Assembly: GCA_963718615.1 (NCBI GenBank)
Contig: OY970368.1
Coordinates: forward strand, 2,006,475-2,070,474
Direction: 5' to 3'
Length of the DNA: 64,000 nucleotides
From: an uncultured cyanobacterium
GTDB lineage: Bacteria > Cyanobacteriota > Cyanobacteriia > PCC-9006 > JAAUQQ01
This document shows positions 9,196-64,000 of the stretch, one piece after another. The notes beneath the pieces were generated by a model. That model was not told where the DNA came from and searched no databases. It was given only the letters and a program-made list of their open reading frames with translations. The translations under genes were made by a program, and so were the position numbers. How positions within the stretch are numbered: the stretch's first letter is position 1; every line of letters begins with the position of its first letter.

Positions 9196-9275
9196 TGCCG
9201 TCGCTCATGCTCACGTACATCTTGTATTATGATGTACTACATGCGGGTGAATGGCAAGCCCCTGGGGCGGCTAAG

Positions 9276-31235: not shown

Positions 31236-32765
31236 ATGTTCAAGACCTTCTACATCAAACCCAGCGAGCGGGGGATGCTCTATCACCGCAGCCACTTTAA
31301 GCGACTGTTGCGCCCTGGCATTCATCGTTTTGTGGGCTGGCACTGGCGCGTGCAGTGTTTTGATCTAAACCAGCCGGAGGTGGAGCTACAGGATGCGGAA
31401 TTGCTGCTGCAAAACCATGGCGACCTGCTGCGGCAACACCTCATTGTAGTACGCACGGCCTTTAATGAAGCGGCTCTGGTGCGGTTGGGGCAGCGCTGGC
31501 TGAGTGTGGCTCCAAACCAATTGCGTTTGTTTTGGCGGGGCCATGTGGAGGTTGCCGTCGAGCGGTTCAACCTGAACGAGAATCTAGAATTGCCTGCCGA
31601 GTTTGTCCAGCAACTTCGTGGCGAGTCGATTCAGGGACTTCAGCGAGTGGAACTGGCGGAGTTTGAGGTCGGGTTGCTGTTTGTCCAGGATAATTTTGTT
31701 CGCCCTTTGGAACCCGGAGAGCATGCCTTTTGGCAGTTTGGCCGTCAGGTGATGGTGCGATCGCTCAATCGTAATCTCCCCAATCCCGACTTTCCCTTTG
31801 AGAATGTCTTGCTGGACCAACATCCTGAGTTTGTTGACACCTACTGTGAGCGGGTAGAGCTTACACCAGAGCAGGTGGCCATTATTCGCCACCGAGGCCA
31901 ATGCATCGATATTTTGCCGCCTTCTAGCCGTCGCCTGTATTGGCAGGGGGTTGGGGTCGAAATCCTCGAAATCGAGGCAGAACGAAAATTGTCGCCTCAG
32001 TTGGTCGCAGAACTGGTTTCTGGTTCGTCTGAGGTCTTGGATCACAGTTTGCCTCACCTCTATGTCCATCAGGTTCCTCAGCATTCGATTGGGATGTTGG
32101 TCATAGATAGCGTAGTACAGGCACCGCTGGAGCCGGGGATTCACGCCTGGTGGTCGTTTGGACGGGCGATCGCCGCCACCAATATCAGCCTCAAGCTCCA
32201 AACCCTGGAGGTCTCAGGCCAAGAGATTCTCTCCAAGGACAAAGTTCCCTTGCGACTCAATCTTTCCGCTGATTATCGGGTGACCGATCCGATGCAGGCG
32301 CTGGCTCAACTGACGAATATTTCCGAGTTCTTGTATAAGGAACTCCAGTTTGCGCTGCGGGCGGCGGTGGGAACGAAGAACTTAGATGCACTCTTGGAGG
32401 ATAAGGGGGCGATCGATCGCAGTATCGCTGAATCTATGGCGGAAAAAACCGAGGGTTATGGTCTAGAGGTGCGATCGGTGGGCGTTAAGGACATCATTTT
32501 GCCGGGGGACATCAAAGACATTCTCGGCAAGGTAGTGGAAGCAGAAAAGTCGGCCCAGGCCAATGTGATCCGCCGCCGGGAAGAAACCGCCGCCACCCGC
32601 AGTATGCTGAACACGGCGCGGGTCATGGAGGATAACCCGATCGCCCTACGGCTGAAGGAGTTGGAGGTGCTGGAGCGGATTGCCGAGAAGATCGATCGGA
32701 TCAATGTCAACGGCAGTTTAGACAGCATCTTGACCGAGCTGATTCAACTTAACCCATCTGCCTAG
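31236..32765 (+). CDS. SPFH/band-7 (stomatin-like) domain protein with long N-terminal region containing an internal duplication
   Basis: C-terminal SPFH core (VPLRLNLSADYRV..., EVRSVGVKDIILPGDI, coiled coil); N-terminal repeats PLEPGEHAFWQFGR / PLEPGIHAWWSFGR. Confidence 0.8.
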   Translation: MFKTFYIKPSERGMLYHRSHFKRLLRPGIHRFVGWHWRVQCFDLNQPEVELQDAELLLQNHGDLLRQHLIVVRTAFNEAALVRLGQRWLSVAPNQLRLFWRGHVEVAVERFNLNENLELPAEFVQQLRGESIQGLQRVELAEFEVGLLFVQDNFVRPLEPGEHAFWQFGRQVMVRSLNRNLPNPDFPFENVLLDQHPEFVDTYCERVELTPEQVAIIRHRGQCIDILPPSSRRLYWQGVGVEILEIEAERKLSPQLVAELVSGSSEVLDHSLPHLYVHQVPQHSIGMLVIDSVVQAPLEPGIHAWWSFGRAIAATNISLKLQTLEVSGQEILSKDKVPLRLNLSADYRVTDPMQALAQLTNISEFLYKELQFALRAAVGTKNLDALLEDKGAIDRSIAESMAEKTEGYGLEVRSVGVKDIILPGDIKDILGKVVEAEKSAQANVIRRREETAATRSMLNTARVMEDNPIALRLKELEVLERIAEKIDRINVNGSLDSILTELIQLNPSA

Positions 32766-41306: not shown

Positions 41307-42995
41307 ATGTCCATAAATTTTAGCGATGAACAAGTTATTTCTGATGTAGCTAGCAGAGTTTACTCAATATTCTCAGCAGATATTGACGATGACGGTGATC
41401 TCGATATAGTAGCCGCTATCAATGGGGAAAACACAGTTGCTTGGTATGAAAATGATGGAAATAGTAACTTTACTCAGCGAACCATTTCGGATACTACTAC
41501 AGGAGCGTTAGCTGTATTAGTGGCAGACATTGATAGTGATGGCAACCTAGACGTTGTAGCTAGCTCACGAAAGAATCAAATTGTTTGGTTTCAGCAAGAT
41601 AATAGCGGAAATTTTACTGAAAGGATTGTAACAAAGACTTTCAACAACACGAATAGTGTTTTTTCTCTTTCTTCTTCAGACATTGACAACGATGGTGATC
41701 TTGACATTATTTCAGCTTCAGCCTATTCGTATGCAGGTAATTTGACTTGGTATGAGAATGATGGCGCTGGAAACTTTACAGAACACACAATTTTTGCTCC
41801 TGAAACAAGGCCTTCTGACTTACAGCCTTGGCAAGTGTCTTCGATTGATATCGACTCCGATAATGATATCGACATACTAGCTGTATTCAAAGGACGGATG
41901 GGAGGAGCAAAGATTTCTTGGTATGAAAATGATGGTAATGCTAACTTCGAGGAACATATTATCGTTGAGAATCTTACTAATAACGGAGGACGATCTGAAT
42001 CAGCGTTTCTTGTTGACTTAGATGCCGATGGTGACATCGATTTCATTTCACAGTCTCTAACAGGTCTCGGTATTTCATGGTATGAGAATGATGGTGAAGA
42101 AAACTTCACCGAGAATTTAGTGGATGACAATCAGCTTTATTATGTCGAGCCAAAATCAATTGATGTTGTGGACTTTGATAGAGATGGAGACCTAGATATC
42201 CTAGTGTCATCTCAAGTGAATCCTGCCAGAACGCTTCTATTTGAAAATGATGGCAATAATAACTTTCAAAAGCATCTCGTAGCCATTAACGAAAAGGCTA
42301 TATTTTCTTCGTCTTTCTCCGATATCGATGGTGATGGCGACATTGATATTGTCTCAGCATCGCGTGATGACAATAAGATTGCTTTGCTGGTTAACCTTGA
42401 ATGCTTCCTCACCGGCACTCTCGTCACCACCACCCAAGGCCCACGCCCCGTCGAAACCCTCCAAATCGGCGACCTCATCCAAACCGCCGACGGCAAAACC
42501 CAACCGATCAAATGGATCGGCACCCAAACCTTCGACGCCGCCAAACACCCCGCCCACCCCTTCCGCACCTACCCCATCCGCATCCAAGCCGGAGCCCTCG
42601 GCCACAACCTCCCCAGCCGCCCCCTCTATGTCTCCCCCGACCACGCCCTCCTGATCGACGGCCTCCTGATCAACGCCGGAGCAATCACCAACGGCACCAC
42701 CATCACCCAGATCCCCATGGAGCAATTCACCTACTACCACATCGAACTCGAACACCACGCCCTCCTCCTCGCCGAAGGCACCCCCGCCGAAAGCTACCTG
42801 CCCCAAAACCAAGCCCGCGACAGCTTCGACAACGGCGCAGAATACGACCAGTTCTACCCCAACCACAACATCCTTTCGCTGTTGCCCATGCACTACCCCC
42901 GCGTTAGCAGCAAACGCCAACTGCCCCGCTTCGTCGCCAAACGGCTCCAGAAAATTTCAGAAATTCTCAGCAGCGACGGTATCCTTACCGCCTAG
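41307..42995 (+). CDS. FG-GAP (7-bladed beta-propeller) repeat protein with C-terminal Hint (Hedgehog/intein-like, Hint_2-type) domain
   Basis: Seven D-x-D-x-DGD-x-D...W[YF]ENDG repeats; Hint block from CFLTGTLVTT to HHALLLAEG; abrupt AT-rich to GC-rich switch at ~42404. Confidence 0.8.
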   Translation: MSINFSDEQVISDVASRVYSIFSADIDDDGDLDIVAAINGENTVAWYENDGNSNFTQRTISDTTTGALAVLVADIDSDGNLDVVASSRKNQIVWFQQDNSGNFTERIVTKTFNNTNSVFSLSSSDIDNDGDLDIISASAYSYAGNLTWYENDGAGNFTEHTIFAPETRPSDLQPWQVSSIDIDSDNDIDILAVFKGRMGGAKISWYENDGNANFEEHIIVENLTNNGGRSESAFLVDLDADGDIDFISQSLTGLGISWYENDGEENFTENLVDDNQLYYVEPKSIDVVDFDRDGDLDILVSSQVNPARTLLFENDGNNNFQKHLVAINEKAIFSSSFSDIDGDGDIDIVSASRDDNKIALLVNLECFLTGTLVTTTQGPRPVETLQIGDLIQTADGKTQPIKWIGTQTFDAAKHPAHPFRTYPIRIQAGALGHNLPSRPLYVSPDHALLIDGLLINAGAITNGTTITQIPMEQFTYYHIELEHHALLLAEGTPAESYLPQNQARDSFDNGAEYDQFYPNHNILSLLPMHYPRVSSKRQLPRFVAKRLQKISEILSSDGILTA

Positions 42996-45380: not shown

Positions 45381-47246
45381 CTAGTTTTCCCGTCTGCGAT
45401 CGCGAAACAACAACCCTTCCCCTCCCGCCAACACCACCCGCTGCCATTTGCGTACCGAATTAATCCGATAGAGAGCTTGTGCCCGCTGAAGTTGCTCGGG
45501 AGTGATGCGCGCCTCGACTAGTTTTCCCTGAGCCAACAGCCAATTCCGGAAGGTTCCGGCTAACAAACCCGCTACCACTGGGGGCGTCAGCCAGGTGTCA
45601 TCCAGCTCGACCACCAGATTACCCAAGCAAAATTCAGTGACCTCTCCTTGATCATTCCACAGCAATACATCGTCGTAGGCCGAATGGGCACTGAGGGCTT
45701 GGTCATACCACTGGCGATGGGTCGTTTTGTGATAGAGAAAGGGATCGTTGCGGGGGATGGGATGGGTAGCCAATGTGGCGGTGAGTGGTGGTGAGGTGCC
45801 GGTGTTAGTGCCGATGTTAGTGCCGATATTAGTGCCGGTATTTTCCAGGGGCTTGGCTTCTAGCCGACAGTCGCCACTGCGCCCGAGCAATAGCCGCACG
45901 CGCTGGGGGGCCTTCCAGGCATGAGCTGCTGTCAAAAGTTGCGCTTGGACTCGGTCAAGGTTCTGCTCAAAGTCAAAATAGGCTGCCGATCGCCCCAATC
46001 GCTGGAGGTGTTCTTCCCAGAGAAAATAGCCCGATTCCGGTTCCCAAAGCAGGGTTTCCAAGAGTTCAAAGGGTGGTGGGGCATGGGTTAAAATTGCCGT
46101 TTTTAAGCAGCATTCCTCGTACTCTGCTTGGCTGTCGGAGTCCCACACAATGCCACTACCCACACCATATTCTGCCGTGCCAGTTGAGCGATCAACTAAT
46201 ATTGTCCGAATGGCAACGTTGAACTGAGCCTGATGCTGCGGTCCCCAATAGCCGAGCGCCCCTGTATAGATTTTTCGGGGAGAATCTTCCACGGCTTGAA
46301 TAATCTCCATCGTTCGGGGTTTAGGCGCACCGGTAATTGAAGCACAGGGAAACAGCGCCGCCAAAATTTCGGCCATGGTAGCTGAACTCTCCGCTGTGAC
46401 CGTTGAGGTCATTTGCCACAGCGTCGGATATTGCTCTAGGTCAAATAATTGGGGAACTTGCACCGACCCCAACCGGGCAATCCGCCCCAGATCATTGCGC
46501 AGCATATCGACGATCATCACGTTTTCGGCTCGATTTTTAGCCGATGCCTGGAGCTGCTGAGCCTGGGCGCGATCGCCCGCCCAATCCAATCCTCGCGCCA
46601 TGGTTCCCTTCATCGGTCGTGTCGTCAACAGCGGCCCCGTCTGGGTAAAAAACAGCTCCGGCGACGCCGAACAAATGGCATAGTTGCCCAGATCGAGATA
46701 GGCTCCGTAATAACCCGGTTGAGCTTGCATCAAATCTTGAAACAGCCCCCAGGTGCTGCCTTCAAAGGTTGTCCGTAGCCGGAATGTATAATTGACCTGA
46801 AACGTATCTCCCTGGGCAATGGATTGTTTGATTGCGGCGATCGCCCCCTCAAACCCCGCCCGATCCACCGAAGCCAACCATTTCCCGAGTTGATAATTGG
46901 CCTGATCGGCAGTCTGATCAGCGGTCTGATCAGCGGTCTGATCAACAATACCTTGCTCTCTCGTCAGAGCCTCCTTCGCTAACCGTTGGGGTTCTCGATA
47001 CAATCCAAACCACAACAGCGGAAACCCAGCGGGATCGGTTTGGACCTGCAACGCCGAATCAAAGGCAGGCGCGGCCTCATAGCTCAAAAAACCAGCGGCG
47101 TAAAGTCCTTGGTAGGTGACCTGTTGATCGAGGTGGGCGATCGCATCCAGAATTTCTTCCCGTCGAAAGACCTCAACCACCTCAACTGGGTTTTGAAAGG
47201 AAAGCCATTGCTGACTTTCTGGCTGATGCAGCAAAACGGATGACAT
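45381..47246 (-). CDS. bifunctional aminodeoxychorismate synthase component I / aminodeoxychorismate lyase (PabB-PabC fusion) with two in-frame 12-nt tandem repeat insertions
   Basis: N-terminal chorismate-binding domain (PGYYGAY..., SPELFF), C-terminal class-IV aminotransferase-like domain; ADQTADQTADQT and NTGTNIGTNIGTN repeats. Confidence 0.85.
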   Translation of the reverse strand: MSSVLLHQPESQQWLSFQNPVEVVEVFRREEILDAIAHLDQQVTYQGLYAAGFLSYEAAPAFDSALQVQTDPAGFPLLWFGLYREPQRLAKEALTREQGIVDQTADQTADQTADQANYQLGKWLASVDRAGFEGAIAAIKQSIAQGDTFQVNYTFRLRTTFEGSTWGLFQDLMQAQPGYYGAYLDLGNYAICSASPELFFTQTGPLLTTRPMKGTMARGLDWAGDRAQAQQLQASAKNRAENVMIVDMLRNDLGRIARLGSVQVPQLFDLEQYPTLWQMTSTVTAESSATMAEILAALFPCASITGAPKPRTMEIIQAVEDSPRKIYTGALGYWGPQHQAQFNVAIRTILVDRSTGTAEYGVGSGIVWDSDSQAEYEECCLKTAILTHAPPPFELLETLLWEPESGYFLWEEHLQRLGRSAAYFDFEQNLDRVQAQLLTAAHAWKAPQRVRLLLGRSGDCRLEAKPLENTGTNIGTNIGTNTGTSPPLTATLATHPIPRNDPFLYHKTTHRQWYDQALSAHSAYDDVLLWNDQGEVTEFCLGNLVVELDDTWLTPPVVAGLLAGTFRNWLLAQGKLVEARITPEQLQRAQALYRINSVRKWQRVVLAGGEGLLFRDRRREN

Positions 47247-52430: not shown

Positions 52431-53360
52431 GTGGATGGATCCTTAACCTACGGACTGATCAACTTTTATAAGCCTCTAGGCTGGACCTCCCATGATTGCG
52501 TCGCCAAGGTCCGGCGTCTGCTGCGCCAAAAACGGGTGGGTCATGGCGGCACGCTTGATCCGGCGGCAACGGGGGTCCTGCCGATTGCGGTTGGTCAGGC
52601 AACCCGACTGATCCAATTCTTACCCGAAGACAAAGCCTATGTGGGTCGTGTCCGGCTTGGATGGATCACCGATACCGATGACCTAGAGGGGGCAGTGATT
52701 GCCCAAACGGATGCTTCTGCGGTGACCCTAGCCCAGGTCGAGGCTCAACTTCCTCAGTTCCAAGGAACCATCCAGCAGTTTCCCCCTCGCTACAGTGCCA
52801 TCCAAATCGAGGGCAAGCGGCTTTACGATCGTGCCCGACAGGGGGAAGTTTTTGAGGTGCCGCTCCGAACGGTTACGGTTCACCATATCCAGGTGTTGAG
52901 TTGGCAACCGGGCGATAGTGAACGGGCTCCGGAAATTGAGCTGGCGATCGCCTGTGGGCCGGGTACCTACATTCGCTCCATCGCCCGTGACCTTGGTGCA
53001 GCCCTAGGGGTCGGTGGAACCTTGGCAAGTTTGGTGCGGACGAAGAGTTGTGGATTGGCCTTGGGGGAAAGTTTGACCCTAGAGGAATTAGAGGCCCGTC
53101 GAGAGGTGGGGGAATTGGCGCTGCTGGATCCGGCGATCGCCCTTCAGCACCTCGAAGCCATTTGCCTGACCCCCGCGCTCGTTCAGCGTTGGTTCTATGG
53201 ACAGCGGTTGCCGATAGAACGGTCGCCGTCACCCCATCCCGTGCGGGTTGAGGACGAAGCGGGAAGTCTCCTAGGAATTGGGGAGTTGTGTTTAGGACAA
53301 AACGGGTGTCCGATTCTGGCTCCTAAACTGGTCTTGTCGCCGGAGACTGGAATCGGTTGA
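52431..53360 (+). CDS. truB: tRNA pseudouridine(55) synthase
   Basis: HGGTLDP catalytic Asp motif, TruB N-terminus. Confidence 0.9.
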   Translation: MDGSLTYGLINFYKPLGWTSHDCVAKVRRLLRQKRVGHGGTLDPAATGVLPIAVGQATRLIQFLPEDKAYVGRVRLGWITDTDDLEGAVIAQTDASAVTLAQVEAQLPQFQGTIQQFPPRYSAIQIEGKRLYDRARQGEVFEVPLRTVTVHHIQVLSWQPGDSERAPEIELAIACGPGTYIRSIARDLGAALGVGGTLASLVRTKSCGLALGESLTLEELEARREVGELALLDPAIALQHLEAICLTPALVQRWFYGQRLPIERSPSPHPVRVEDEAGSLLGIGELCLGQNGCPILAPKLVLSPETGIG

Positions 53361-53396
53361 ATGGGCCTCTGCAAATCATGAGTTTAGCCTTTAGGT

Positions 53397-54110
53397 CTAT
53401 TGGGTTTCTCCAATTAAGGTAAATCCAGCCCAGGCTTTTGGATCCGCATTTTCTTGCTTGACCCGTAACATCGCTTGCCGCAGCGCTTGAGCACTGTCTA
53501 AATTCTCGCCTTGCCTCAGCCGATAGAATTCCGCCATCAGCTTGGCCGTTGCGTCATCCGGGACCTGCCAGAGCGATACCATGACGCTCGCGGCCCCTGC
53601 GCCCAAAAACGATCGTGATAACCCAATCACGCCATCTCCAGTAATTCGCCCTCGTCCGGTATCGCAGGCGCTGAGGACAACCAGTTCCGCTTGGATGGGA
53701 ATGTCCAAAATTTCGCCCGCTGTCAGTAAGCCGTCATCCGCAGGGGTGGTTGCAGTCGCACTGTCGGGAGCGAGGGCGATCGCCCCCTTCAAAGGCTCAC
53801 TGGAATTGAACACCCCATGGGTTGCCAAATGAATCAGCCGAGACTGGGACAGTTGCTGTTTGACGCTGCCCTCTGTCGCTGCGGCACCGATGCGCGCTTG
53901 AGTCTTGAGAATTTCGCCAATTTCTTCGGCTTCCGTCGCGGTAAACGGCAGCGGCGCAAAGGATGGCGGCATAGGGGTCGGATTGCCTACAATCAGGGAC
54001 TGTTGCAGCGTATTGGGGATTTGCTGGCGGCGACGGTGGGTGGCCTCTAGAACTTGCATCGCTGGAGCAGTTTGGAGGGTATGTTGCTCGAACCAAGTAG
54101 CTGCCGTCAT
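53397..54110 (-). CDS. CHAT (caspase-like) protease domain; 3' piece of a frameshifted TPS-TPR-CHAT gene
   Basis: His/Cys dyad motifs HLATHG and LSACDTG; overlaps upstream ORF in +1 frame. Confidence 0.7.
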   Translation of the reverse strand: MTAATWFEQHTLQTAPAMQVLEATHRRRQQIPNTLQQSLIVGNPTPMPPSFAPLPFTATEAEEIGEILKTQARIGAAATEGSVKQQLSQSRLIHLATHGVFNSSEPLKGAIALAPDSATATTPADDGLLTAGEILDIPIQAELVVLSACDTGRGRITGDGVIGLSRSFLGAGAASVMVSLWQVPDDATAKLMAEFYRLRQGENLDSAQALRQAMLRVKQENADPKAWAGFTLIGETQ

Positions 54111-57100
54111 TGGCCTGAAGCGCTGGGAAGGGTACTAAGAAGAGTTCCTCCTGGGGAATAAAGACGATTCGCTCCTGGGCCTCTGGGGGCAAGAGATCGG
54201 CGATGGGGGTAATCAGGAGTTGGTAGAGTTGATTGAGGGGATTGGCGGCGATCGCAGCGGCTGGCGCAGCCATTGATGCAGCCGTTGATGCAGCAGCTCC
54301 TGAAGGCACAAGACCGGCCCCTTCCTCGCCCCGGCTCAACCGACTGGCGGCTCGGGCGCAGAGGCGATCGTTCATACAGCGTCGGGCAATGGCGACAGCA
54401 TTCACGAGGGACGTTTTGTTTTGCTGTTGCCAAGCAAACAGATTAACTTGCCGAACCTGCACGTTACCCTCGGGCGAAAGCACCCAGATGAGCAGTCGGG
54501 ACGCTTGGGGCTCTCCGGCATATTGGGGCGATGCACCGTGGGGAACTTCGACAAACTGCTCACGGGCAATGGTATAGGCCACCATCGTTGCCTTTTGCTC
54601 ACGGGCAATGCGTTGCAATTCGGCTAAGTTGGGGGGAGGAACAGTGGCTTTTTGGGATTGCTGGGCCGCATTGCCTCGGGCCAAGAGCTCCACAAAGGCT
54701 CGGCCTCGGCCCCGTTCGGCAATTTCGAGGGCTTGGGCGGGTTTGTTTTGGTCGACGAGAACTTCCTGCAAATTTTGGTAGGCCGCTAGCTGGGTTTCAA
54801 AAATTGAAACCTTATAGGTATCGTTATTTCCCAGCCCCGCCCGCAGGGATTCCCAAACGCTCAAACTCTCAAACAGACTCCGTTCTGCGGCGGCCAGTTG
54901 GTCCACTTGAAACTGAGCATCCCCTAGATTGGTTAAGGCAATCCCTTCGCCTAAACGAGTTTTGAGATCGCGCACGATCGCCAGTGCCTGTTGATTGAAT
55001 TCAATGGCCTTACCATAATCTTTTTGATAGGCATAGGTCGCGCCCAAGCCTAAAAGAGTCTGTGCAATTTCTAACTGAGAGCCAATGGCTTGAGCGAGGG
55101 TGAGGCTTTGCTGGTAGTGGGCGATCGCTTGCCCAAATTCCCCATTCAGGGCATAGGTATTGCCTAGATTTCCTAGGGTTTGCATTTCCCCATAGCGGTC
55201 TTGGGTTGCACGGACTAGGGTTAAACTTTGCCGCTGGTATTGAATGGCCTGAGGATAGTTCTTCTTCGATAGGTAGGCGTTCCCCAAATTGCGTAGGGCT
55301 AAGGTGTACCATTGGGGTGCCGTTTCTGGAGTTAGTTGATTAAGGCTGCGGTTGTAATAGTCGATCGCGGTGTCGTAGTCCCCGAGGGCTGCGTAGGCGG
55401 CACCGATGCCCGCTTGGGCGATGCCGATTTGGGTGCGATCGCTCGTTCGCATGGCTTTCTCAAGCTGTGTTTGATGAAATTCTAGCGCTTTAAGATAATC
55501 TCCAATGACAAAGTGAGAAACTCCCAAATTATTGAGCGAATAGAGTTCCCATTCTGAGCTTTTGTTCGCTTCTGCTAAAGATAGATTTTGTTCATAACAC
55601 TGAATTAAGACATTATAAAGGCCCTGGTCTCGCTGACCGGCGGAGGTCTCTTGAAGTTGCTTGACCTGTTGGGGACAATCCTGAAATGGAATACGGGTGG
55701 GTGTTACGCCTGAAATCGTTTCGGGTCCAGGGTTGCTGTTGTTTTGGGAAGGATTAAGCGAGTCGTCTTGGGGAACGTTTGCGATTGGACCTAAATCAGG
55801 ATTGCTCGGTGAAATTGGTGCACCAGCAACACCGGGATTTAGAGAATTAACTCCAGAGGCAGCAGGGTCGATCACTTCTGCATCACCCGTTGGTGAAATT
55901 TGAATACTATAGGTGACGGTATTCATGGGGCCAATACCAAGGGGGAGGCTTGGGAAAAGAGGCTGAACACCAATGACCATCGGAATGACTGTAACCGTAA
56001 AACTGCCCCCCGGACCAAGAAAAGGTAATGTATTGGGTCCATTGGTATTAACGGAAAGACTTGTGGGTATTTTGTTTGAGGTGTCAGGATTATTCCCAAA
56101 AACGTTGCCCTGTAGACTTTGTATGGTTTTGGTAGACCAGTAAGTAGGAGGAATCAGTAATAAGTTTGGTTCTGGAATGACGCTCTTAAAAATGGAGAGA
56201 TCTGCAAACCGGGCAGAAGATTCTAGGGGAATTCCAAAAATGACAGAAACGGATTGATTGACCGTCTCAGGAACTTTGAGGACTGATTCTGGTTGTGTTT
56301 GTAAATCTCGGATAATGCCTGGGGGAATGCGAGGCGGGGATGGCGGATCCGGAGGATTATCAATTTGAGTGGGAACTTCAACGGTTTGCGAAACGGCGAG
56401 GCCATCGCTAACACGGAGGCTAAAAGCATTGAGATTACCGCTAATTCCGGTAGGTGGTTCGTAGGTGAGAGCGTCGGTCAGGGCGATCGCCTCACCATTA
56501 CCCAAAACGACCCCATTTCTTCGTAAAATACCGCTGTTAACCGCAACGAGAGCCAACGTCAAATTATCATTGTCTGCATCTGCGATCGCTAAATTCAAAT
56601 CATTCAACGTAAAGCTAAGCGGCTGATCGACCGTCGTGGTTAACCCTGGACTTCCCGTTAAAATCGGTGCGGCATTGTTAAAGGTAATACTAATTTCATT
56701 GTTGGGACCTTGAGTGGTTGTACCGGTTGCGTTAAACGAGGTATTGGCGATCGCCACCGGAGCCCCAAAAGTCCCCACAGAAAGACCCCCTGCTGTGCCA
56801 TTAATCGCCAAATTCCCCACCGTAAAGCCAACATTGTCGGGACCTCCATTATGCTGAAGGGCGATCGTTCCCGCTGTCTCTCCTCCAAAGGTATCAATCG
56901 TGGTTGGACTTCCTAATTCATTTAGAAGGGTCCCTGTTCCCTGAATCGTTCCCGCTGCATTGATTGAAACATTTCCCCCCTGTCCGGCATCGCGACTTTC
57001 CCCTTGGCTGGCTGTATTAATGGTTTCAAACTGAATGTCTCTACCCCCATTGAGTTGAACAGCGCCTGCGGCCACATTATCTGTGGAGTTTGAACGTGCA

Positions 57101-58059
57101 GAAGTATCGATCGCCCCCGCTGCAATCGTACCTTGGGGCGCGGCTACGGATATGGGACCACCCTGAATAAAGTTAGCAGCTTCTTCCGTCGTATCATTGA
57201 CTGCCGTACTGAGATTGCCCACTTGAATACTAGAATCTGTGCCCGTTAAGAATTGGGGGAGCGACTGAGGGGTGAGTTCTGGCGGGAGGCGATCGCCTCC
57301 CGCCAGCGTGGAAATTTCTAGCGTCAACACTGCCCCCGCTTGACTAATCTGAACCCGATTTTGTCCCGGTACTGCTGCAATCAGAAGGTTACCTCCGGGC
57401 GCTGTCAAATTGCCACCACCGTTGATGTTGCCGCCTAGAAGAATCAGCGTGTTACCCGGTCGTACAGCCAAGGTTGCTTGGTTGACTAAGGCTGCTGGAT
57501 CCTCGAAGGAAAAGGCGAAGGCTGTTGGATCGCCGAGCAACTGGGCGTAGTTATTCGGGCCAAAGGCATTAAACCACTGGTCTCCGAAGGCAATGCGATC
57601 GCCCGTCATCCCCAAAAACGCCGCAGGCAAATTGAGCTGGGCATTGGGACCAAAAATCAGACCCGCTGGATTGATTAAAAATAAATTAGCAGTGGCTCCC
57701 GTAATTTGAAGCGTTCCGTTAATGCTTGAAGGCTGTCCCCCCGTGATTCGACCCAAGATATTTTCAAGGGTGGGATTGGCCACAAAATTGGCCGTTTGCC
57801 CGAGGTTGACATCAAAGGTTTGAAAACTATGAAAGAGGTTATTGCCTGCCGTCGTTCCACCGCTAATATCAACCTGATTCCCAACAGAATTGACCGTGGT
57901 TCCGGTGCCATCCGTTGCCGGGGTAATGGCTTGGGCCAAGATCAATGGAGGCTGTGAGAATGCAGGCCTTGATAACGCAGGCTGTGATAACGCAAGCCAA
58001 GAGACCATTGCCACGCTGGGCAGCGTGAGCCAGGACAACGGAGACAGAGGCGTTAGCAT
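53797..58059 (-). CDS. large secreted-type protein: signal peptide, TPS/haemagglutination-activity N-terminal domain, beta-rich repeats, TPR array, beginning of CHAT domain (5' piece of frameshifted gene)
   Basis: NLFHSFQTFDV TPS motif; 8+ TPR-like repeats (ALxNLGxxY); CHAT N-terminal motif FPALQANDGSYLV before frame loss. Confidence 0.7.
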   Translation of the reverse strand: MLTPLSPLSWLTLPSVAMVSWLALSQPALSRPAFSQPPLILAQAITPATDGTGTTVNSVGNQVDISGGTTAGNNLFHSFQTFDVNLGQTANFVANPTLENILGRITGGQPSSINGTLQITGATANLFLINPAGLIFGPNAQLNLPAAFLGMTGDRIAFGDQWFNAFGPNNYAQLLGDPTAFAFSFEDPAALVNQATLAVRPGNTLILLGGNINGGGNLTAPGGNLLIAAVPGQNRVQISQAGAVLTLEISTLAGGDRLPPELTPQSLPQFLTGTDSSIQVGNLSTAVNDTTEEAANFIQGGPISVAAPQGTIAAGAIDTSARSNSTDNVAAGAVQLNGGRDIQFETINTASQGESRDAGQGGNVSINAAGTIQGTGTLLNELGSPTTIDTFGGETAGTIALQHNGGPDNVGFTVGNLAINGTAGGLSVGTFGAPVAIANTSFNATGTTTQGPNNEISITFNNAAPILTGSPGLTTTVDQPLSFTLNDLNLAIADADNDNLTLALVAVNSGILRRNGVVLGNGEAIALTDALTYEPPTGISGNLNAFSLRVSDGLAVSQTVEVPTQIDNPPDPPSPPRIPPGIIRDLQTQPESVLKVPETVNQSVSVIFGIPLESSARFADLSIFKSVIPEPNLLLIPPTYWSTKTIQSLQGNVFGNNPDTSNKIPTSLSVNTNGPNTLPFLGPGGSFTVTVIPMVIGVQPLFPSLPLGIGPMNTVTYSIQISPTGDAEVIDPAASGVNSLNPGVAGAPISPSNPDLGPIANVPQDDSLNPSQNNSNPGPETISGVTPTRIPFQDCPQQVKQLQETSAGQRDQGLYNVLIQCYEQNLSLAEANKSSEWELYSLNNLGVSHFVIGDYLKALEFHQTQLEKAMRTSDRTQIGIAQAGIGAAYAALGDYDTAIDYYNRSLNQLTPETAPQWYTLALRNLGNAYLSKKNYPQAIQYQRQSLTLVRATQDRYGEMQTLGNLGNTYALNGEFGQAIAHYQQSLTLAQAIGSQLEIAQTLLGLGATYAYQKDYGKAIEFNQQALAIVRDLKTRLGEGIALTNLGDAQFQVDQLAAAERSLFESLSVWESLRAGLGNNDTYKVSIFETQLAAYQNLQEVLVDQNKPAQALEIAERGRGRAFVELLARGNAAQQSQKATVPPPNLAELQRIAREQKATMVAYTIAREQFVEVPHGASPQYAGEPQASRLLIWVLSPEGNVQVRQVNLFAWQQQNKTSLVNAVAIARRCMNDRLCARAASRLSRGEEGAGLVPSGAAASTAASMAAPAAAIAANPLNQLYQLLITPIADLLPPEAQERIVFIPQEELFLVPFPALQANDGSYLVRATYPPNCSSDASSRGHPPSPPANPQYAATVPDCRQSDPYAAILCAAAVYRDGSRRNWRNSQDSSAHRCRSDRGQRQTATVPVSADSFGNPWGVQFQ

Positions 58060-58184
58060 AGCACTTACCCATTCAGGAGATTTGGATCCCTATGACCGCG
58101 CACCGCAATTTATGCAGTGTAGCGATTCAATCATAGAATCGGGTCTTGCCTTTGGTTTTCGAGCTGAAATTCTCTGGCTCCGGA

Positions 58185-59933
58185 TCAATGGCTGGGTTCG
58201 TTACTCTTGTCACAGGCTTCGGGGGTGAGCATAGCGCGATCGCGCCCCGCCTGCTTGGCGGCATAGAGCCCCGCATCGGCCTGATCGACCAAAAGACTCG
58301 GCAGTTGTTCCGAGTTGGGAATCATCGTGGCGACTCCCAAACTCAAGCTCACCACCGGGGCGACCTTAGATCCCTTGTGTTCAATTTGAAGCTCCTTCAC
58401 CCGCTGCCGCACGAGCTCCGCCAGCTCTAGGGCACGGTCCGTCGACGTATTGGGCAACAAAATCACAAATTCTTCCCCCCCATAGCGGGCCGCCAAATCT
58501 GTTGAGCGTTTGACAACGGATTGTAGGGCTTGGGCAACCGACCGCAAACAGCGATCGCCCTGGGGATGGCCATAGGTATCGTTATAAATTTTAAAATAGT
58601 CAACATCGCAAATTATCAACGATAGGGGCCGCTGCGATCGCATCCCTTGCTGCCAGGAGCGCTGCAGGGTTTCATTAAATAAACGCCGATTGGCTAATTG
58701 GGTCAGCTCGTCTTTGCTGGAAAGCTGCTTAAATTGACGGGTTTGATAGGCCGCTAAGCCCAAGGTGGAACCGAGCCAAACCAGTAAACCCGGTACCCAG
58801 GGTAGCCACCAACTGCCCCACCAAAAGACGATATAGCTCCCCCCGACGAGGAGACCGGTGCCCCCTAGAATCCACAGCAGGGGCCTGCGGATTTGCAAGG
58901 GCTGCCAGTACAGGAGAAAACCGAGGCTGGCGATCGCCCCCAATCCCACCCATTCGGCCCATTTCGGTACCGTGCGAATTCCCGGTGCACGGCCCATTTC
59001 TACGGCACTGATGATTTGGCTAGCGAGATTGGCATGGAGTTCCACCCCGTACATTGTGGTACCGGTGTTCTGTGGCCCATTGCTGTAGGACGTAAAGAAT
59101 AGATCACCATCCGCAGCAGCGGTACTGCCCACAATCACGAGGCGATCATGTAAGAGTCCTGGCACTAACTCACCCTTGAGGACCTGGGTGAGGGAAACTC
59201 GCACAAACGGTTCTGTGGAATGACGTAGATTGAGCAAAAGCTGATACCCATTGGCATCCGCATGGATATAGCCGCCATCCTGAGACTCAAAGGCAGGAAA
59301 GGCGATACCTTGGATGGTCAAAACTGGGTCTTCGGGGTCCGGCTGGATGCCTGCGGCTGCGAGATATTCCAAGGCCAAGCGAAACCCCAAGCCCGGTAGG
59401 GCCTGATCATGATCCAAGGCCGGATAGAGCAACCCCCGCCGTATCCGTCCATCTGGATCCGCAAGAATATCGCTAGCGGCTAATCGCCCTTGGGAGCGCA
59501 AAATCTCATTACCAGGCACGGCTCCAATTTTTTCATTGCCAACCACTTTTTCAATGCCAATCAAATTGGGCGTATTGGCAAAGACTTGGGCCAACTGGTC
59601 TTGACCCTTGCCAATGGGCAAATTGCGGTAAAGATCTAGACCTATGACCCGAGGTTGCTGGGCTGCGATCGCCGTCAACAACTCCGCCAGGGTTTGGTCA
59701 GAGATCGCAGCTTGGCCCAGTTGCTGTAAGTCTTCTTCCTGGATGCCGACAATGACAATCCGGTCGTCCCTAGGCTCAGCCACCCGAGAACGAACCATGG
59801 CATCCAAGGTTTGCAATTCGAAGGACTGTAAACCGCCCAAACATCGCAAACCTGAGATCAGGCCAACCGTCCCCAGGCTAATCAACCCTGGAATGAGGGA
59901 GGTCAGACAACGCTGCCAATTTTTCCCAACCAT
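58185..59933 (-). CDS. CHASE2 sensor domain-GGDEF diguanylate cyclase
   Basis: CHASE2 periplasmic domain flanked by TM helices; C-terminal GGEEF (RYGGEEFVILL). Confidence 0.85.
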   Translation of the reverse strand: MVGKNWQRCLTSLIPGLISLGTVGLISGLRCLGGLQSFELQTLDAMVRSRVAEPRDDRIVIVGIQEEDLQQLGQAAISDQTLAELLTAIAAQQPRVIGLDLYRNLPIGKGQDQLAQVFANTPNLIGIEKVVGNEKIGAVPGNEILRSQGRLAASDILADPDGRIRRGLLYPALDHDQALPGLGFRLALEYLAAAGIQPDPEDPVLTIQGIAFPAFESQDGGYIHADANGYQLLLNLRHSTEPFVRVSLTQVLKGELVPGLLHDRLVIVGSTAAADGDLFFTSYSNGPQNTGTTMYGVELHANLASQIISAVEMGRAPGIRTVPKWAEWVGLGAIASLGFLLYWQPLQIRRPLLWILGGTGLLVGGSYIVFWWGSWWLPWVPGLLVWLGSTLGLAAYQTRQFKQLSSKDELTQLANRRLFNETLQRSWQQGMRSQRPLSLIICDVDYFKIYNDTYGHPQGDRCLRSVAQALQSVVKRSTDLAARYGGEEFVILLPNTSTDRALELAELVRQRVKELQIEHKGSKVAPVVSLSLGVATMIPNSEQLPSLLVDQADAGLYAAKQAGRDRAMLTPEACDKSNEPSH

Positions 59934-59973
59934 ATTGTGCAGTCCCTGCTAAAGCGGCGGTCGAAAAGTAACA

Positions 59974-60846
59974 TTACCGCTGTGAAATCTGAAGCGAAGG
60001 CGTTTTCACCTGAGCCTGCTGGAGGAGCGAGGTCAGAGTTGTGCGCAGTTCGACTTGGTCGGGATTTTGTTCGATCGCCCGCACCAATAAGCCGACAGCG
60101 TCATACCAATAGCCCTGGGCCGCTTGGGCTGAAACCTGCTCGAGTACAGACGCAGAAGGAGAAAACTGGGCGATGCTTGCGGGCAGGCGAGTAATAAAGC
60201 TGCGAGCATAGATGCCAGAGCCAAAGAGCTCTGCCGTGGTGGTCACGGGTCGACAGGCGGAAACCACGGTCCAGCGGTAGCGAACATTGGGTTCCAGCGT
60301 AATCGATTCAGGCAGCGTCAGATGGAAAACCCCGCTGTGGTTCGCGGTCAACGCCTGGGAATAGATCGGCTGGGCCTGCTGAGGATGGGACAGCATCATC
60401 ACCATGGAAACCGGCTGCTGGGTTTGCACAGACCAGGCCAGCGTCGGCTGGGCTTGGGTGGTGAGGAGGCCAGCCGGGTCCTGGGGGGCCAGGAGGCTGA
60501 GCTGAGTGGCGGGAGTTTGAGCGGTAGAGATTTGATCGGGAGACGGAATGACGCCAGGGCAAGCGGGGGCACCGGCATCGCGCCGCCCACCGGAGAGTGT
60601 ACTGCCGACCCGGCCTCGGTTCTCTTTGGGACGCCATTGGACTGTGGAGGGGGAAGCACTGGCCGAGGGGGGTGGACTTGGGTGAGTTTGGGCGATCGCA
60701 CTCGCGGTCATCAAGCCCCAAAGGGGAATAAAACCGCCTGTGATGGCGATCGCCAAGCCCCAGGAAGATAGCTGCTGCAACATAAACAATCCGGTGTGAG
60801 GAAAGGAATAGGGCAGATCCACCTTAAGACTCGTAAAATTTGCCAA
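59974..60846 (-). CDS. DUF928-family secreted protein
   Basis: Signal peptide; cyanobacterial DUF928-like sequence; positioned between CHAT and CHASE2 genes. Confidence 0.6.
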   Translation of the reverse strand: MANFTSLKVDLPYSFPHTGLFMLQQLSSWGLAIAITGGFIPLWGLMTASAIAQTHPSPPPSASASPSTVQWRPKENRGRVGSTLSGGRRDAGAPACPGVIPSPDQISTAQTPATQLSLLAPQDPAGLLTTQAQPTLAWSVQTQQPVSMVMMLSHPQQAQPIYSQALTANHSGVFHLTLPESITLEPNVRYRWTVVSACRPVTTTAELFGSGIYARSFITRLPASIAQFSPSASVLEQVSAQAAQGYWYDAVGLLVRAIEQNPDQVELRTTLTSLLQQAQVKTPSLQISQR

Positions 60847-60858
60847 GAGAATTAAAGC

Positions 60859-63800
60859 TTACCAAGGATTGCCCACAAGGTTGAAGGCAGCCCAGTAAAA
60901 GGGATGGGTAAAGCGAATCGGTTCAGCATTGGGCTCAGAATTTACCTCAGAATTCACCTCAGAGGGAGGGTCTGATTCTGCTGCGGGGGGAGCAAGCCAC
61001 TGTAATTCCGGGGGCAACGGAATCGACTGGTGAGCCGTCAGTAATTGACCGTTCTCGATCCGCGTTTCGCCGTTCAGCATGTGAAGCTGGGTGGCTTGCA
61101 GGGCGGCGGCGAGTCCGTTTGCAGAGGAAACCTGACGATAGAAATCCGTCATTAAGGCCAGTGTGCCCACATCTGAGACAGACCATATACTTCCTAATAC
61201 AGACTTCACACCACTGGCTGCCGCTAAGCCGGTAAAGCCCAGTTCTGCGTCTGAACTGCCAAGCGCGGTTGCGCAGGCACTAAATGTCAGTAAATCTACG
61301 TTGGATAAATCCCAGGGAAGCTGGCGGAATTTGCGGAGATTGAGTTGTTCTTCCCACAACTGAATAAAGGAATCCTGAGCGGATCCCGGTTGAAAAACGG
61401 CGTGGGTGGCGAGATGCAAAATCTCTGGCCGCTGCTGTTGTTGCTGGTTGAGCAGATTGTCCAGGGTAAAGCCTTCGTTGAGCCAGGGGCGATCGCTTCC
61501 CAAACTCTGACTAATGGTTTGCAATTCTGTCGCGACCGCAGGCAGAGGCGCTAGGGTTTGAAACTGGTCCGCCCCCATGGATAACAATTGGCGGGGGGGC
61601 TTGGCAGGGAGTCGGGCATCCATCAAACTCATGCTGGGAACGAGCGCTAAGGCATAGCGTTCAATCACAAACGTTTCTTCATCCATCATGGCTGCGACGG
61701 GAAGCGTGCGCAGTCCTTCATCTAGGCTGAAGAGGAGCTGGGTGATCTGATTTTTTTCTAGTTCTGGTTCAAAGGGTTCGACCAACCATTGATAAAACTG
61801 TCGTCCCGTGGGTTGATAGCCATATTCATCGTCCGGGTCAGAGGCGGCCATGCGAAACAGTTGTGCGAGCGGAATGACCTGTTGCCGCTGGACGGGGAGG
61901 GTTTTAGCGATCGCTTTCCCCTCCGGTAAAACCAAAACAATATTCAAATGATCCTGATCGAGTTGGGGCGATCGCCCTTGTTCCGTCAATAAGTCTTGAT
62001 CAAGCTGGTTAGGACTGGTCGCAGAAATGCCTGTTGCTTCAGCTTTCTGACGAGCGGGGGGCCGAAAGAACGCATAGATAACGGCGCTAGCAATTCCTTT
62101 GCTGTCCCGCGCTTGGCGTAACCGGGCCTGAATTTCTCCCAAGCTCAGAGTTTCGCCGGAAGCAATGTCCCAGTAGTTGCGATAGTCTTCACTGCTATTT
62201 CGCTCGGACTGTTGCACAAGCATGCCAGCGGTCGTAGGATCGAGGGAAAGTCCGGTTGAGGGGTTGAGGCTTACCGTCTCATTGGCGTTGGTGAGCAGCG
62301 CCGTTTCTGACTGAAGCGCTAACGTGTTCTCCCACTGAGATATCAATTGCTGAGATGTCAATGGGATCAACGGTAGTTTTGATGCATTAGAGTCAGCGGT
62401 TGTTGCCGGGGACAAAGGGTCTGAAGAAGCCCCAGGATTGCTAACTGGCAACGGCGTTGGAACGGGATTCGGGTGAGCAACAGATGTTGGAATGGGGCTG
62501 GGAATGGGGCTAGGAATAGGGTTGATAACCGGTGGAATAACAGGCTGGGTTGTCGTGAGTTGATAAGGGATAGGTGTGATCAAACCGGGGGTTGTTGCAG
62601 TGGCCGTGTAGGTTGCGGGGAGATCGGTGGCGGCGATCGCCAAACTCGCCTGCCCCCCGCTAATAGCAACCTGGCTGTTGCCCTCAGGGGTGATACCGCT
62701 GGGAACTGTAAAATTGACCCAGCCACCATCCACCGGAGCGCCGTCGTTGCTGGCGATCGCCAAGCCAATCGGACTGGCAAAGGCCGTATTTACCTCGGTG
62801 GTTTGGGGCGTACCGCTAGCGGTAATCACAAAGCCTTGGGATTCAAAGGCACCGATATCGGGATTGCCCCATCTGGCTAGGCCCCGTTGATCCGTGGGGA
62901 TATTAGAACTGCCTTGGTCGATTGCTACACTACCGGGCAATAGGGCTATGGTTTCTGTCAGGCCGCCATAGTTCCCGAGGGGCGCGAGCAGTGGATGGAT
63001 TGGCGCAGTGTGGGTGCCCACAAACGCACTGAGGGTGAAGCCTGTTGATCCAGTTTGAATCCCAATCAGATTGTGGTTTAAATCCGTAAACGAACCAAAG
63101 AGATCGGGACCTATCGCCGCTTGATTCTGCGCCACAATCGTATTCGCAACCGTTAAAGCTCCTCCGGCTGTCCCTTGCATAATGCCGCCGCCACGACCTT
63201 GACCATCCCCATCGGCATCGGCTTGATTATGGGCGATCGTGGCATGGATAAGTTGACCCGTTCCATAGTGATTTAAGCCGCCACCATCCCGCCCTGCTTG
63301 GTTATCCGACAAGGTAATATTTTCACCCTGAAACGTTGAATTTTGCCCCAGGGAAATTCCGCCACCGTCCAGTCCAGCCGTATTACGAGCGATCGTCGAA
63401 TTTACCAAGTTTAGGATTCCCCCGGCAGCAATGGGATTGACCCCAATTCCCCCGCCGTAGTCCCTGGCGTGGTTGTCCGTTACCAGGCTGTTTTTTAGGG
63501 TGATAGTACCCGTGAAGTTTTGAAAATTCGGAGCCGCTAAACCACCGCCGTTAATGTCAGACTGATTGTTACTCAAGGTAACAGTATCAAGTACCAAATT
63601 ACTCGAATTTTCAAGATTAATCCCACCCCCAAATTGACCCGCTTGATTGCCTTGAATGACGGTCCGCTGAATGTTACCTTGTAATTCTAATAAACTCAGC
63701 GCACCGCCATAGAGCTGTGCTTGGTTGTTGATGAAGTTGCTATCGGCGATCGCCAAATTACCCGTATTATGCCGCACTGCGCCACCGCTGGTCGCAGTAT

Positions 63801-64000
63801 TATTTTGAAAGTTACTCCGAAGGATGGAAAGTATTCCATTGTTAACGGCGATCGCTCCCCCATAGCGTGTTGCCACATTATTTTGAAATGTGGTATTATC
63901 CACTGTCAGCGTTTCATAATTGTTAATGGCACCCCCATCTTGGGTCGCTTGATTGGCGTCAAAGAGCGAGTTACGAATTACCATCGTAGCGCCAACGTCG
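60859..64000 (-). CDS. Pmp-type (GGAI / FxxN) parallel beta-helix repeat protein with C-terminal CHAT domain; 5' end beyond window
   Basis: At least 9 GGAI/GGGI plus FxxN repeat units; C-terminal HLATHA...FSACAT CHAT dyad. Confidence 0.75.
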   Translation of the reverse strand, partial: DVGATMVIRNSLFDANQATQDGGAINNYETLTVDNTTFQNNVATRYGGAIAVNNGILSILRSNFQNNTATSGGAVRHNTGNLAIADSNFINNQAQLYGGALSLLELQGNIQRTVIQGNQAGQFGGGINLENSSNLVLDTVTLSNNQSDINGGGLAAPNFQNFTGTITLKNSLVTDNHARDYGGGIGVNPIAAGGILNLVNSTIARNTAGLDGGGISLGQNSTFQGENITLSDNQAGRDGGGLNHYGTGQLIHATIAHNQADADGDGQGRGGGIMQGTAGGALTVANTIVAQNQAAIGPDLFGSFTDLNHNLIGIQTGSTGFTLSAFVGTHTAPIHPLLAPLGNYGGLTETIALLPGSVAIDQGSSNIPTDQRGLARWGNPDIGAFESQGFVITASGTPQTTEVNTAFASPIGLAIASNDGAPVDGGWVNFTVPSGITPEGNSQVAISGGQASLAIAATDLPATYTATATTPGLITPIPYQLTTTQPVIPPVINPIPSPIPSPIPTSVAHPNPVPTPLPVSNPGASSDPLSPATTADSNASKLPLIPLTSQQLISQWENTLALQSETALLTNANETVSLNPSTGLSLDPTTAGMLVQQSERNSSEDYRNYWDIASGETLSLGEIQARLRQARDSKGIASAVIYAFFRPPARQKAEATGISATSPNQLDQDLLTEQGRSPQLDQDHLNIVLVLPEGKAIAKTLPVQRQQVIPLAQLFRMAASDPDDEYGYQPTGRQFYQWLVEPFEPELEKNQITQLLFSLDEGLRTLPVAAMMDEETFVIERYALALVPSMSLMDARLPAKPPRQLLSMGADQFQTLAPLPAVATELQTISQSLGSDRPWLNEGFTLDNLLNQQQQQRPEILHLATHAVFQPGSAQDSFIQLWEEQLNLRKFRQLPWDLSNVDLLTFSACATALGSSDAELGFTGLAAASGVKSVLGSIWSVSDVGTLALMTDFYRQVSSANGLAAALQATQLHMLNGETRIENGQLLTAHQSIPLPPELQWLAPPAAESDPPSEVNSEVNSEPNAEPIRFTHPFYWAAFNLVGNPW

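Follow-up and report, generated by a model that had tools for sequence, protein, structure and literature searches.

What is a cyanobacterium doing with caspase-like CHAT domains on two predicted surface proteins, a small protein of the DUF928 family and a membrane sensor, all encoded in one row? The question is raised by positions 53397-64000 of a 64,000-nucleotide stretch (the window) of contig OY970368.1, which belongs to the uncultured cyanobacterial assembly GCA_963718615.1. Here, five open reading frames (ORFs) on the minus strand make up four co-directional genes, called G1 to G4 in the direction of transcription. G1 and G4 combine a two-partner secretion (TPS) domain, a beta-helix, and a CHAT domain, with a TPR array added in G4; G2 encodes DUF928; and G3 encodes a CHASE2 sensor with a GGDEF domain. 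Our answer, to which we give about an even chance, is that the genes of this cluster are linked in function and form an envelope signalling module, with DUF928 and CHASE2 at its core. By gene context and sequence, that core is a DUF928 protein predicted to be secreted, together with an inner-membrane CHASE2 sensor, and its recurrent accessories are CHAT proteases predicted to be exported.

Do the four genes belong together?

The case for a link comes from gene context. We compared 42 DUF928-anchored loci (21 from species-representative genomes, 3 from cyanobacterial plasmids, and 18 from metagenomes, mostly short), which span several cyanobacterial groups, beta-, gamma-, and alphaproteobacteria, plasmids, and metagenomes. 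The genome collection was scanned with a single peptide pattern from the DUF928 alignment, and the source genome of the window is not among the 21 genome loci. Loci were annotated by phmmer, for which domains of the window and of Pfam-verified loci served as queries, and selected loci were checked with Pfam. A CHASE2 gene (or a cyclase tail at a contig edge) lies adjacent to DUF928 or one ORF away in 35 of the 42; it is clearly absent at 2 (L016 and L017), and contig ends cut the other 5. At all ten cyanobacterial genome loci (10/10), CHASE2-GGDEF comes directly after DUF928.

What varies is the output attached to CHASE2. This is GGDEF in the window, in loci L001-L010, and in Myxacorys; a class III adenylate/guanylate cyclase in proteobacteria; and a histidine kinase in Gloeothece. 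Leptothoe, one metagenome contig, and Nostoc punctiforme have an N-terminal, apparently cytoplasmic CHAT domain on CHASE2, and the CHASE2 protein of Nostoc NIES-3756 has no output domain. DUF928 and CHASE2 thus stay constant across interchangeable outputs, from which we expect the conserved interaction to be periplasmic, on the input side. By the same argument, c-di-GMP is a lineage-specific output and not a signal that commands proteases. The initial annotation had proposed a c-di-GMP-signalled module of secreted proteases; synteny upholds the linked gene set, but the proposal is too narrow and probably runs in the wrong direction.

Among the DUF928-anchored loci, 22 are ≥10 kb, and 9 of these hold CHAT genes. 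Three metagenome-assembled genomes (MAGs) of Pseudanabaenaceae (L001, L005, and L007) retain TPS-PMP-CHAT, DUF928, and CHASE2-GGDEF as a trio, which recurs rearranged in Myxacorys almedinensis, as a divergent CHASE2-GGDEF gene followed by TPS-PMP-CHAT and then DUF928. All three of the closest G4 orthologues adjoin DUF928, and two of them also have a CHAT–CHASE2 fusion and DUF1822 nearby. Proteobacterial loci carry the parts as a cassette of CHAT, ShlB-type TpsB, TpsA, CHASE2-cyclase, and DUF928 (L014, L020, and L040; partial in L015, L039, and L041). The single complete CHAT gene of this cassette, in L039, encodes a TPR-CHAT protein with a signal peptide, and G4 looks like a Rosetta-stone fusion of the cassette's separate TpsA and TPR-CHAT genes. 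The initial annotation had staked its reading on these domain families being syntenic in other genomes. They are, in other orders and across phyla, and this recurrence in unrelated genomes indicates that the clustering of the four genes is far beyond chance.

Several of the compared loci hold features of their own. The sole long DUF928 loci without CHASE2, from Thiomargarita and Thiotrichales MAGs (L016 9521-12804 and L017 6676-9992), encode a 730-746-aa protein directly after DUF928 that may be an alternative partner; neither protein has a Pfam match at E ≤ 1e-4, and the one in L016 has a weak VWA_3 match (6.5e-4). At the third G4 orthologue (L049 2545-11166), DUF928 lies directly before TPS-TPR-CHAT, and next comes a Cache histidine kinase, not CHASE2. 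The DUF1822 genes of Leptothoe and the metagenome contig (L022 5340-6278 and 22247-23356; L023 11971-13257) may be a further module component. The N. punctiforme plasmid pNPUN01 (L028, 227917-235350) encodes a WD40-TPR-CHAT protein with a signal peptide, a trypco2 protein, CHAT–CHASE2, and DUF928, with a further CHAT gene and a WD40 gene upstream.

What do the four genes encode?

Domains were called on G1-G4 with Pfam and NCBIfam profiles, and PADLOC was used for defence systems. Both the row of four co-directional genes (gaps of 12, 40, and 125 nt between G1/G2, G2/G3, and G3/G4) and the domains named in the initial annotation (CHAT, CHASE2, GGDEF, DUF928, haemagglutination/TPS, Chlam_PMP, and TPR) were borne out, by the ORFs and by Pfam, respectively. 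The G1/G2 gap becomes 75 nt if G2 starts at ATG 60783, the start used in the public gene call. Table 1 gives the coordinates; those of the TPR array and the G1 beta-helix were converted from residue numbers, and the TPR range is approximate.

Table 1. Positions of the four genes and of the features within them
Feature	Position in window	Strand	Basis or remark
G1	60859..>64000	minus	ORF; runs beyond window end
G1 beta-helix (PMP-type repeats + choice-of-anchor Q)	62836..63999	minus	Pfam, NCBIfam
G1 CHAT caspase-like domain	60868..61815	minus	Pfam, residues 729-1044
G1 predicted catalytic motifs	HLATH 61402-61416; FSAC 61273-61284	minus	motif search
G2	59974..60846	minus	ORF; DUF928 secreted protein (predicted)
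DUF928 N-terminal linear motif, here PKENRGRVGSTLSGGRRD	60577..60630	minus	alignments
G3	58185..59933	minus	ORF; CHASE2–GGDEF membrane sensor diguanylate cyclase (predicted)
G3 CHASE2 extracytoplasmic sensor domain	58917..59864	minus	Pfam, residues 24-339
G3 GGDEF domain	58236-58715	minus	Pfam
G3 RSTD (RxxD inhibitory site), then GGEEF active site	58467..58508	minus	motif search
G4	53797..58059 + overlapping 53397..54110	minus	two ORFs, one TPS–beta-helix–TPR–CHAT gene
G4 TPS domain	57331..57918	minus	Pfam; preceded by signal-peptide-like hydrophobic leader
G4 TPR array	54850..55602	minus	Pfam TPR_12, TPR_1, other TPR families
G4 CHAT domain, split over two frames	53400..54240	minus	Pfam
G4 motifs	HLATH 53817-53831; LSAC 53664-53675	minus	both in downstream frame
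G4 extra base, +1 frameshift (…tac ttg gtt C gag caa cat…)	54090	minus	orthologue alignment

G3 matches the Pfam models CHASE2 (3.8e-57, 194.2 bits against a cut-off of 26.3) and GGDEF (4.4e-53, 179.8 bits) as well as NCBIfam TIGR00254 (2.6e-49, 167 bits). Hydropathy places hydrophobic segments at residues 9-27 and after 350, bracketing CHASE2 as in a CHASE2 sensor with a C-terminal GGDEF output, and the sequence has further hydrophobic stretches between the two domains. The RSTD-x5-GGEEF stretch (RSTDLAARYGGEEF, residues 476-489) holds both the active site and the RxxD site, from which the output is apparently an active diguanylate cyclase.

The window holds only the 3' 1046 codons of G1, whose frame stays open from ATG 63984 to the window edge. 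A 17.7-kb Logan contig assembled independently (run ERR12035938), with identical G2 and G3 proteins, carries the full-length gene, whose precomputed annotation lists TPS, Chlam_PMP, and CHAT in 1943 aa. The TPS domain of G1 is seen solely in that annotation, and with it both G1 and G4 are TpsA-like. The initial annotation was thus right on the beta-helix and CHAT of G1, but the window edge cut the gene short and the TPS domain was missed. Within the window, Pfam finds CHAT (1.2e-60, 205.9 bits, profile positions 1-289) and Chlam_PMP (2.2e-12), NCBIfam finds POMP repeats as well as a choice-of-anchor Q domain, and the beta-helix region leads into a linker rich in Pro. With a full domain and both the His and Cys motifs, G1 has the sequence of a CHAT peptidase, and its activity is predicted on that basis.

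G4 has a TPS domain after a hydrophobic, signal-peptide-like leader, as expected of a TpsA protein (Pfam TPS 7e-39, 134.7 bits against a cut-off of 33.5; NCBIfam TIGR01901 adhes_NPXG 4e-21), followed by TPR_12 (7.9e-34) and CHAT.

What kind of protein is DUF928?

G2 is a DUF928 protein by Pfam (PF06051; 1.5e-23, 83.9 bits against a cut-off of 26); it is small (269 aa in the public call) and has a signal-peptide-like N-terminus, as expected if it is secreted. The profile finds 6397 cluster representatives (50% identity, E ≤ 1e-3), most of them stand-alone proteins of 240-290 aa and some tandem duplicates. The most conserved feature of the family is an N-terminal linear motif of the pattern PPxRGxP-x5-xVGGxxRG, one Arg of which is invariant in 46/46 DUF928 sequences aligned; the motifs GGxR, QPTL, YxW, and WYD are also conserved in G2. 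An AlphaFold model of DUF928 has a mean predicted local distance difference test score (pLDDT) of 78 and a predicted template modelling score (pTM) of 0.71. It suggests a disordered N-terminus, a beta-sandwich of seven to eight strands, and three C-terminal helices. The linear motif with its invariant Arg falls inside the modelled disordered region, in which residues 57-69 have pLDDT <50. The model gave no enzyme-like match, and the body would be a binding-type, non-enzymatic beta-sandwich. Conserved and apparently unstructured, such a peptide in a secreted protein would suit docking or cleavage. Extended peptides are ligands of TPR arrays, and cleavage after basic residues is known for several clan-CD proteases.

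Two variations on the family may be recorded. About a dozen of the 150 cluster representatives listed are two-domain DUF928 proteins of 440-540 aa, and L039 has tandem duplicated DUF928 genes (8940-10531).

How might the module work?

The placement of CHAT differs between lineages. In the cyanobacterial module, it is fused behind a TPS domain and a beta-helix stalk (G1 and G4), and in the proteobacterial module it sits on a signal-peptide TPR-CHAT protein beside a separate TpsA and an ShlB-type TpsB. Where CHAT partners are not fused to CHASE2, they are predicted from sequence to be extracytoplasmic; those without a TPS domain (L028, L029, and L039) have N-terminal signal-peptide or hydrophobic segments.

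We tentatively suggest that DUF928 is a proteinaceous co-receptor or pro-ligand of CHASE2, and that its N-terminal Gly/Arg peptide is bound or cleaved by a TpsA-tethered periplasmic (TPR-)CHAT domain. Threaded through a TpsB encoded elsewhere, the TpsA part would become a filament on the surface, whereas the (TPR-)CHAT domain at the C-terminus would stay or act in the periplasm, as do the C-termini of HMW1, HxuA, and CdrA, which show that those of TpsA proteins can be periplasmic (PMC5422565). There it would meet DUF928, and by binding or cleaving it would alter how DUF928 engages CHASE2; this change, in turn, would switch c-di-GMP synthesis by G3. In other lineages, the same switch would act on cAMP/cGMP, on a kinase, or on intracellular CHAT activity. 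Overall, this would be an outside-in relay in which a surface filament acts, by way of periplasmic proteolysis, on a second messenger. We think the specific cleavage relay possible but rather unlikely as it stands; if true, it would be a previously unrecognised proteolytic route from surface to messenger, common to cyanobacteria and proteobacteria.

Part of the comparison weighs against the module and the relay. The tie of DUF928 to CHASE2 or to CHAT is drawn from gene context and predicted topology. Seven of the ten closest cyanobacterial DUF928–CHASE2-GGDEF pairs have housekeeping neighbours and no CHAT gene, so the protease must be facultative or encoded elsewhere, and more distant TPS-TPR-CHAT and TPS-x-CHAT genes are found without DUF928 or CHASE2 within 10 kb. 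CHAT is apparently cytoplasmic in the CHAT–CHASE2 fusions and thus not always on the input side, and no preference of CHAT proteases for cleavage at Arg is known. A frameshift in G4 disrupts one of the two proteases of this genome as sequenced. No TpsB was found among the scanned window ORFs and upstream genes, and outer-membrane export of G1 and G4 is a prediction. Finally, promoter and terminator scans gave 10 and 18 hits against 7.0 ± 2.8 and 14.1 ± 4.1 in shuffled controls, which is not above chance and makes the scans uninformative on operon structure.

Which other explanations should be weighed?

One alternative is a Lap/CdrA-like release of adhesins, in which the periplasmic anchor of the surface adhesins G1 and G4 would be cut by the C-terminal CHAT domain of the adhesin itself or of its partner. 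The c-di-GMP made by G3 would then set whether the cell is sticky or free, and CHASE2 would sequester DUF928 as a protease regulator, as LapD does LapG. LapG, a cysteine protease under c-di-GMP control, does indeed cut the TpsA adhesin CdrA in the periplasm, and the CdrA–LapG–LapD logic is matched here by a giant TpsA beta-helix protein combined with a cysteine protease and an enzyme of c-di-GMP (PMC5422565). The adhesin-type repeats and Pro-rich linker of G1 point the same way, as does a Big_1/invasin–CHAT protein encoded at an orthologous locus. We nevertheless consider this unlikely. DUF928–CHASE2 pairs exist without a nearby adhesin gene, and most lineages have an output other than c-di-GMP (cyclase, kinase, or CHAT), so a c-di-GMP-centred inside-out mechanism cannot be the conserved function. 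No LapG or LapD Pfam domain is present in G1-G4; the LapD model reaches 57.8 bits against a cut-off of 1020, through GGDEF only. A conflict system of multicellular bacteria akin to apoptosis, with CHASE2 sensing envelope danger, CHAT effectors deciding cell fate, and the GGDEF version derived, seems to us distinctly improbable. It would account for the CHAT–CHASE2 fusions next to DUF928 in Leptothoe, the metagenome contig, and N. punctiforme pNPUN01, and for the trypco2 and WD40-TPR-CHAT proteins of the last; caspase–CHASE2 architectures also figure among predicted bacterial death and immunity systems (PMC8195603). However, PADLOC finds no defence-system family in the cluster, just a generic TPR match, and the Csx29 model scores 19.2 bits against a cut-off of 300. 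The window and proteobacterial versions have second messengers as output and no death effector, and the exported CHAT proteins are predicted to act outside the cytoplasm.

A C-terminal effector on TpsA with a small gene 12-75 nt downstream resembles cdiA-CT/cdiI of contact-dependent inhibition (CDI; background in PMC5422565), in which case TpsA would deliver a CHAT toxin to neighbours and DUF928 would be the immunity protein. By Pfam, neither G1 nor G4 has a pre-toxin or VENN-type domain, CHAT is not variable among orthologues, and no CdiB/TpsB was found locally. Immunity proteins are typically variable, cytoplasmic, and toxin-specific, whereas DUF928 is conserved across phyla, has a signal peptide, and accompanies CHASE2 rather than CHAT, and such antagonism is very improbable. 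The adjacency of the four genes could also be fortuitous. Some adjacency is expected given how many CHAT and TPS-CHAT genes cyanobacteria have (strict thresholds give 272 and 367 homologues), and several homologues do have unrelated neighbours. Synteny has largely refuted this idea, and we give it hardly any credence: the same families stand together in varied orders and phyla, and TpsA and TPR-CHAT are related by fusion or splitting.

Is the CHAT domain of G4 intact?

The initial annotation took G4 to be a single intact gene, which it is not: one extra base splits its CHAT domain over two frames. The 1420-aa frame, which is the protein on public record (P0025), covers CHAT profile positions 3-72, and an overlapping 237-aa frame covers 53-289; an exact-protein look-up found no gene on record for the latter. 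Three orthologues (P0026-P0028) follow one G4 frame to ...ALQANDGSYLV and the other from EQHTLQTAPA.... Since the SYLV codon ends at 54091 and the EQHTL codon starts at 54089, there is a single extra base at 54090. The protein as sequenced thus has 1420 aa and ends out of frame, and the reconstructed one has 1553 aa. Without the catalytic His and Cys, G4 as sequenced should be protease-dead, and G1 would then be the working protease in this genome.

The downstream part of G4 is 55% identical to its Leptothoe orthologue and keeps both catalytic motifs, which makes the lesion either a sequencing error or an event of very recent date. On the Logan contig, G4 breaks off at residue 1322 (about 54094), 1-4 nt before the extra base, which suggests that the reads branch there, through either mixed alleles or a systematic read error. 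Programmed +1 frameshifting was considered and rejected, as GTT-C-GAG gives the P-site tRNA no re-pairing. An origin of the G4 CHAT domain as a copy of that of G1 was likewise rejected: the proteins are 27% identical, and blastn of 53301-54400 against the window gave chance-level matches only (≤20 nt). The tandem PD40 ORFs at 23130-24337 on the minus strand are not a second frameshift but two paralogous PD40-repeat lipoprotein genes (220 and 182 aa, overlapping by 4 nt), each with its own signal peptide and lipobox-like Cys. As they are separate genes, we saw nothing to suggest that indel errors are widespread in the assembly.

Where is the TpsB?

The initial annotation had remarked that no TpsB is encoded in the visible part and had pointed 5' of G1, beyond the window end, as the place to look for one. 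The observation holds, and it extends to the genes called there. Pfam scans of ten window ORFs, including the largest outside the cluster, gave no match to ShlB or POTRA_2. The five genes called upstream of G1 on the Logan contig (a 230-aa protein without a Pfam match, an ArsR-type regulator, FeoA, FeoB, and an SBF transporter) include no TpsB either. A TpsB gene is present in relatives L020, L039, and L040 and in Nostoc L026, where an ShlB-type TpsB is divergent from the adjacent TPS-CHAT gene. A cyanobacterial TpsB can thus adjoin a TPS-CHAT gene. The lack of one at this locus is most simply explained by its being encoded elsewhere in the genome.

As an observation in its own right, Nostocales TPS-CHAT proteins such as the one at L026 10001-15145 (Nostoc sp. 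ATCC 43529) have an N-terminal GT2 glycosyltransferase before TPS, which is an odd topology for a protein exported through Sec and TpsB.

How does the cluster relate to known systems?

By Pfam, NCBIfam, and PADLOC, the cluster falls outside the Lap, CDI, and Craspase systems. It shares with CdrA/CdrB and LapG–LapD of Pseudomonas aeruginosa a TPS domain, a beta-helix passenger, a cysteine protease at the periplasmic side, and a link to c-di-GMP. Here, however, the protease is a clan-CD CHAT domain, either fused to TpsA or on a separate TPR-CHAT protein; no LapD was found, and the c-di-GMP protein is a CHASE2-gated synthase rather than a receptor. DUF928 is an extra, obligatory partner, and no TpsB was found at the locus. 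The likeness to two-partner secretion extends to the ShlB/POTRA_2 TpsB proteins of the proteobacterial relatives.

Csx29 of the type III-E Craspase also combines a TPR array with a CHAT domain. This protease is regulated and has as its substrate Csx30, the product of a gene at the same locus, which parallels the proposed relation of CHAT to DUF928. Unlike the proteins here, which are predicted to be exported and have no cas genes beside them, Csx29 resides in the cytoplasm in complex with a Cas effector and is triggered by RNA.

The CHASE2 cyclases CyaD1, CyaD2, and CyaK of Sinorhizobium meliloti need the outer-membrane beta-barrel NsrA and respond to a proteinaceous signal (PMC7529298, PMC13001267), and without its CHASE2 domain (pCyaD1-deltaCHASE2) CyaD1 makes cAMP constitutively (PMC5498481). 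Both an envelope partner and, in the proteobacterial versions of the module, a class III cyclase output are shared with that system. It differs in its partner, NsrA, with a FecR-domain gene nearby, and in that its papers do not feature DUF928, CHAT, or TPS. A periplasmic protein of S. meliloti with an uncharacterised fold, SMc02178, depends on the CHASE2 cyclases for its expression.

The initial annotation stated that the co-occurrence of CHAT, CHASE2, and DUF928 had already been noted in cyanobacteria. The nearest support is a CHASE2/DUF928/WD40 cluster in N. punctiforme, called species-specific and discussed for its WD40 proteins (PMC5587647); nothing further was found. That pNPUN01 cluster has the same module in the form of WD40-TPR-CHAT, a CHAT–CHASE2 fusion, and DUF928, but TPS is absent from it, and CHAT takes the place of GGDEF on its CHASE2 protein. 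In the literature searched, DUF928 is mentioned in that paper alone; no paper was found on the CHAT domain with CHASE2 or two-partner secretion, or pairing any two of CHAT domain, filamentous hemagglutinin, and CHASE2. The module itself thus appears undescribed in that literature, although its Pfam families are all established ones and homologues carry the label 'CHAT domain-containing protein' or 'filamentous hemagglutinin family protein'. We class it as a variant that joins two known kinds of system: type Vb secretion with accessory proteolysis, and signalling by CHASE2 receptors.

Although the CHASE2 sensor domain is widespread in bacteria, to our knowledge it has no known ligands beyond the S. 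meliloti proteinaceous signal. The near-obligatory pairing of DUF928 with CHASE2, together with the exported CHAT/TPS parts, suggests how such receptors are fed and makes the long-open question of CHASE2 input testable. The module also suggests a role for the very numerous cyanobacterial 'filamentous haemagglutinin–CHAT' proteins. The N. punctiforme plasmid cluster and the five-gene cassette of Burkholderiales are tractable carriers for such work.

Other features of the window

Elsewhere in the window, 41307-42995 (plus strand) encodes a 562-aa protein with six FG-GAP repeats and a Hint_2 (intein/hedgehog-like) domain. The 658-aa ORF at 12762-14738 (minus strand), overlapped by ORFs on the opposite strand, is a putative gene with no match in Pfam (E ≤ 1e-5) or NCBIfam (E ≤ 1e-3). 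Two SPFH/Band 7 proteins, at 5850-7403 (minus strand) and 31236-32765 (plus strand), are unusually long at 517 and 509 aa. The 621-aa protein of 45381-47246 (minus strand) is a fusion of a chorismate-binding domain and an aminotransferase class IV domain, PabB–PabC-type in appearance.

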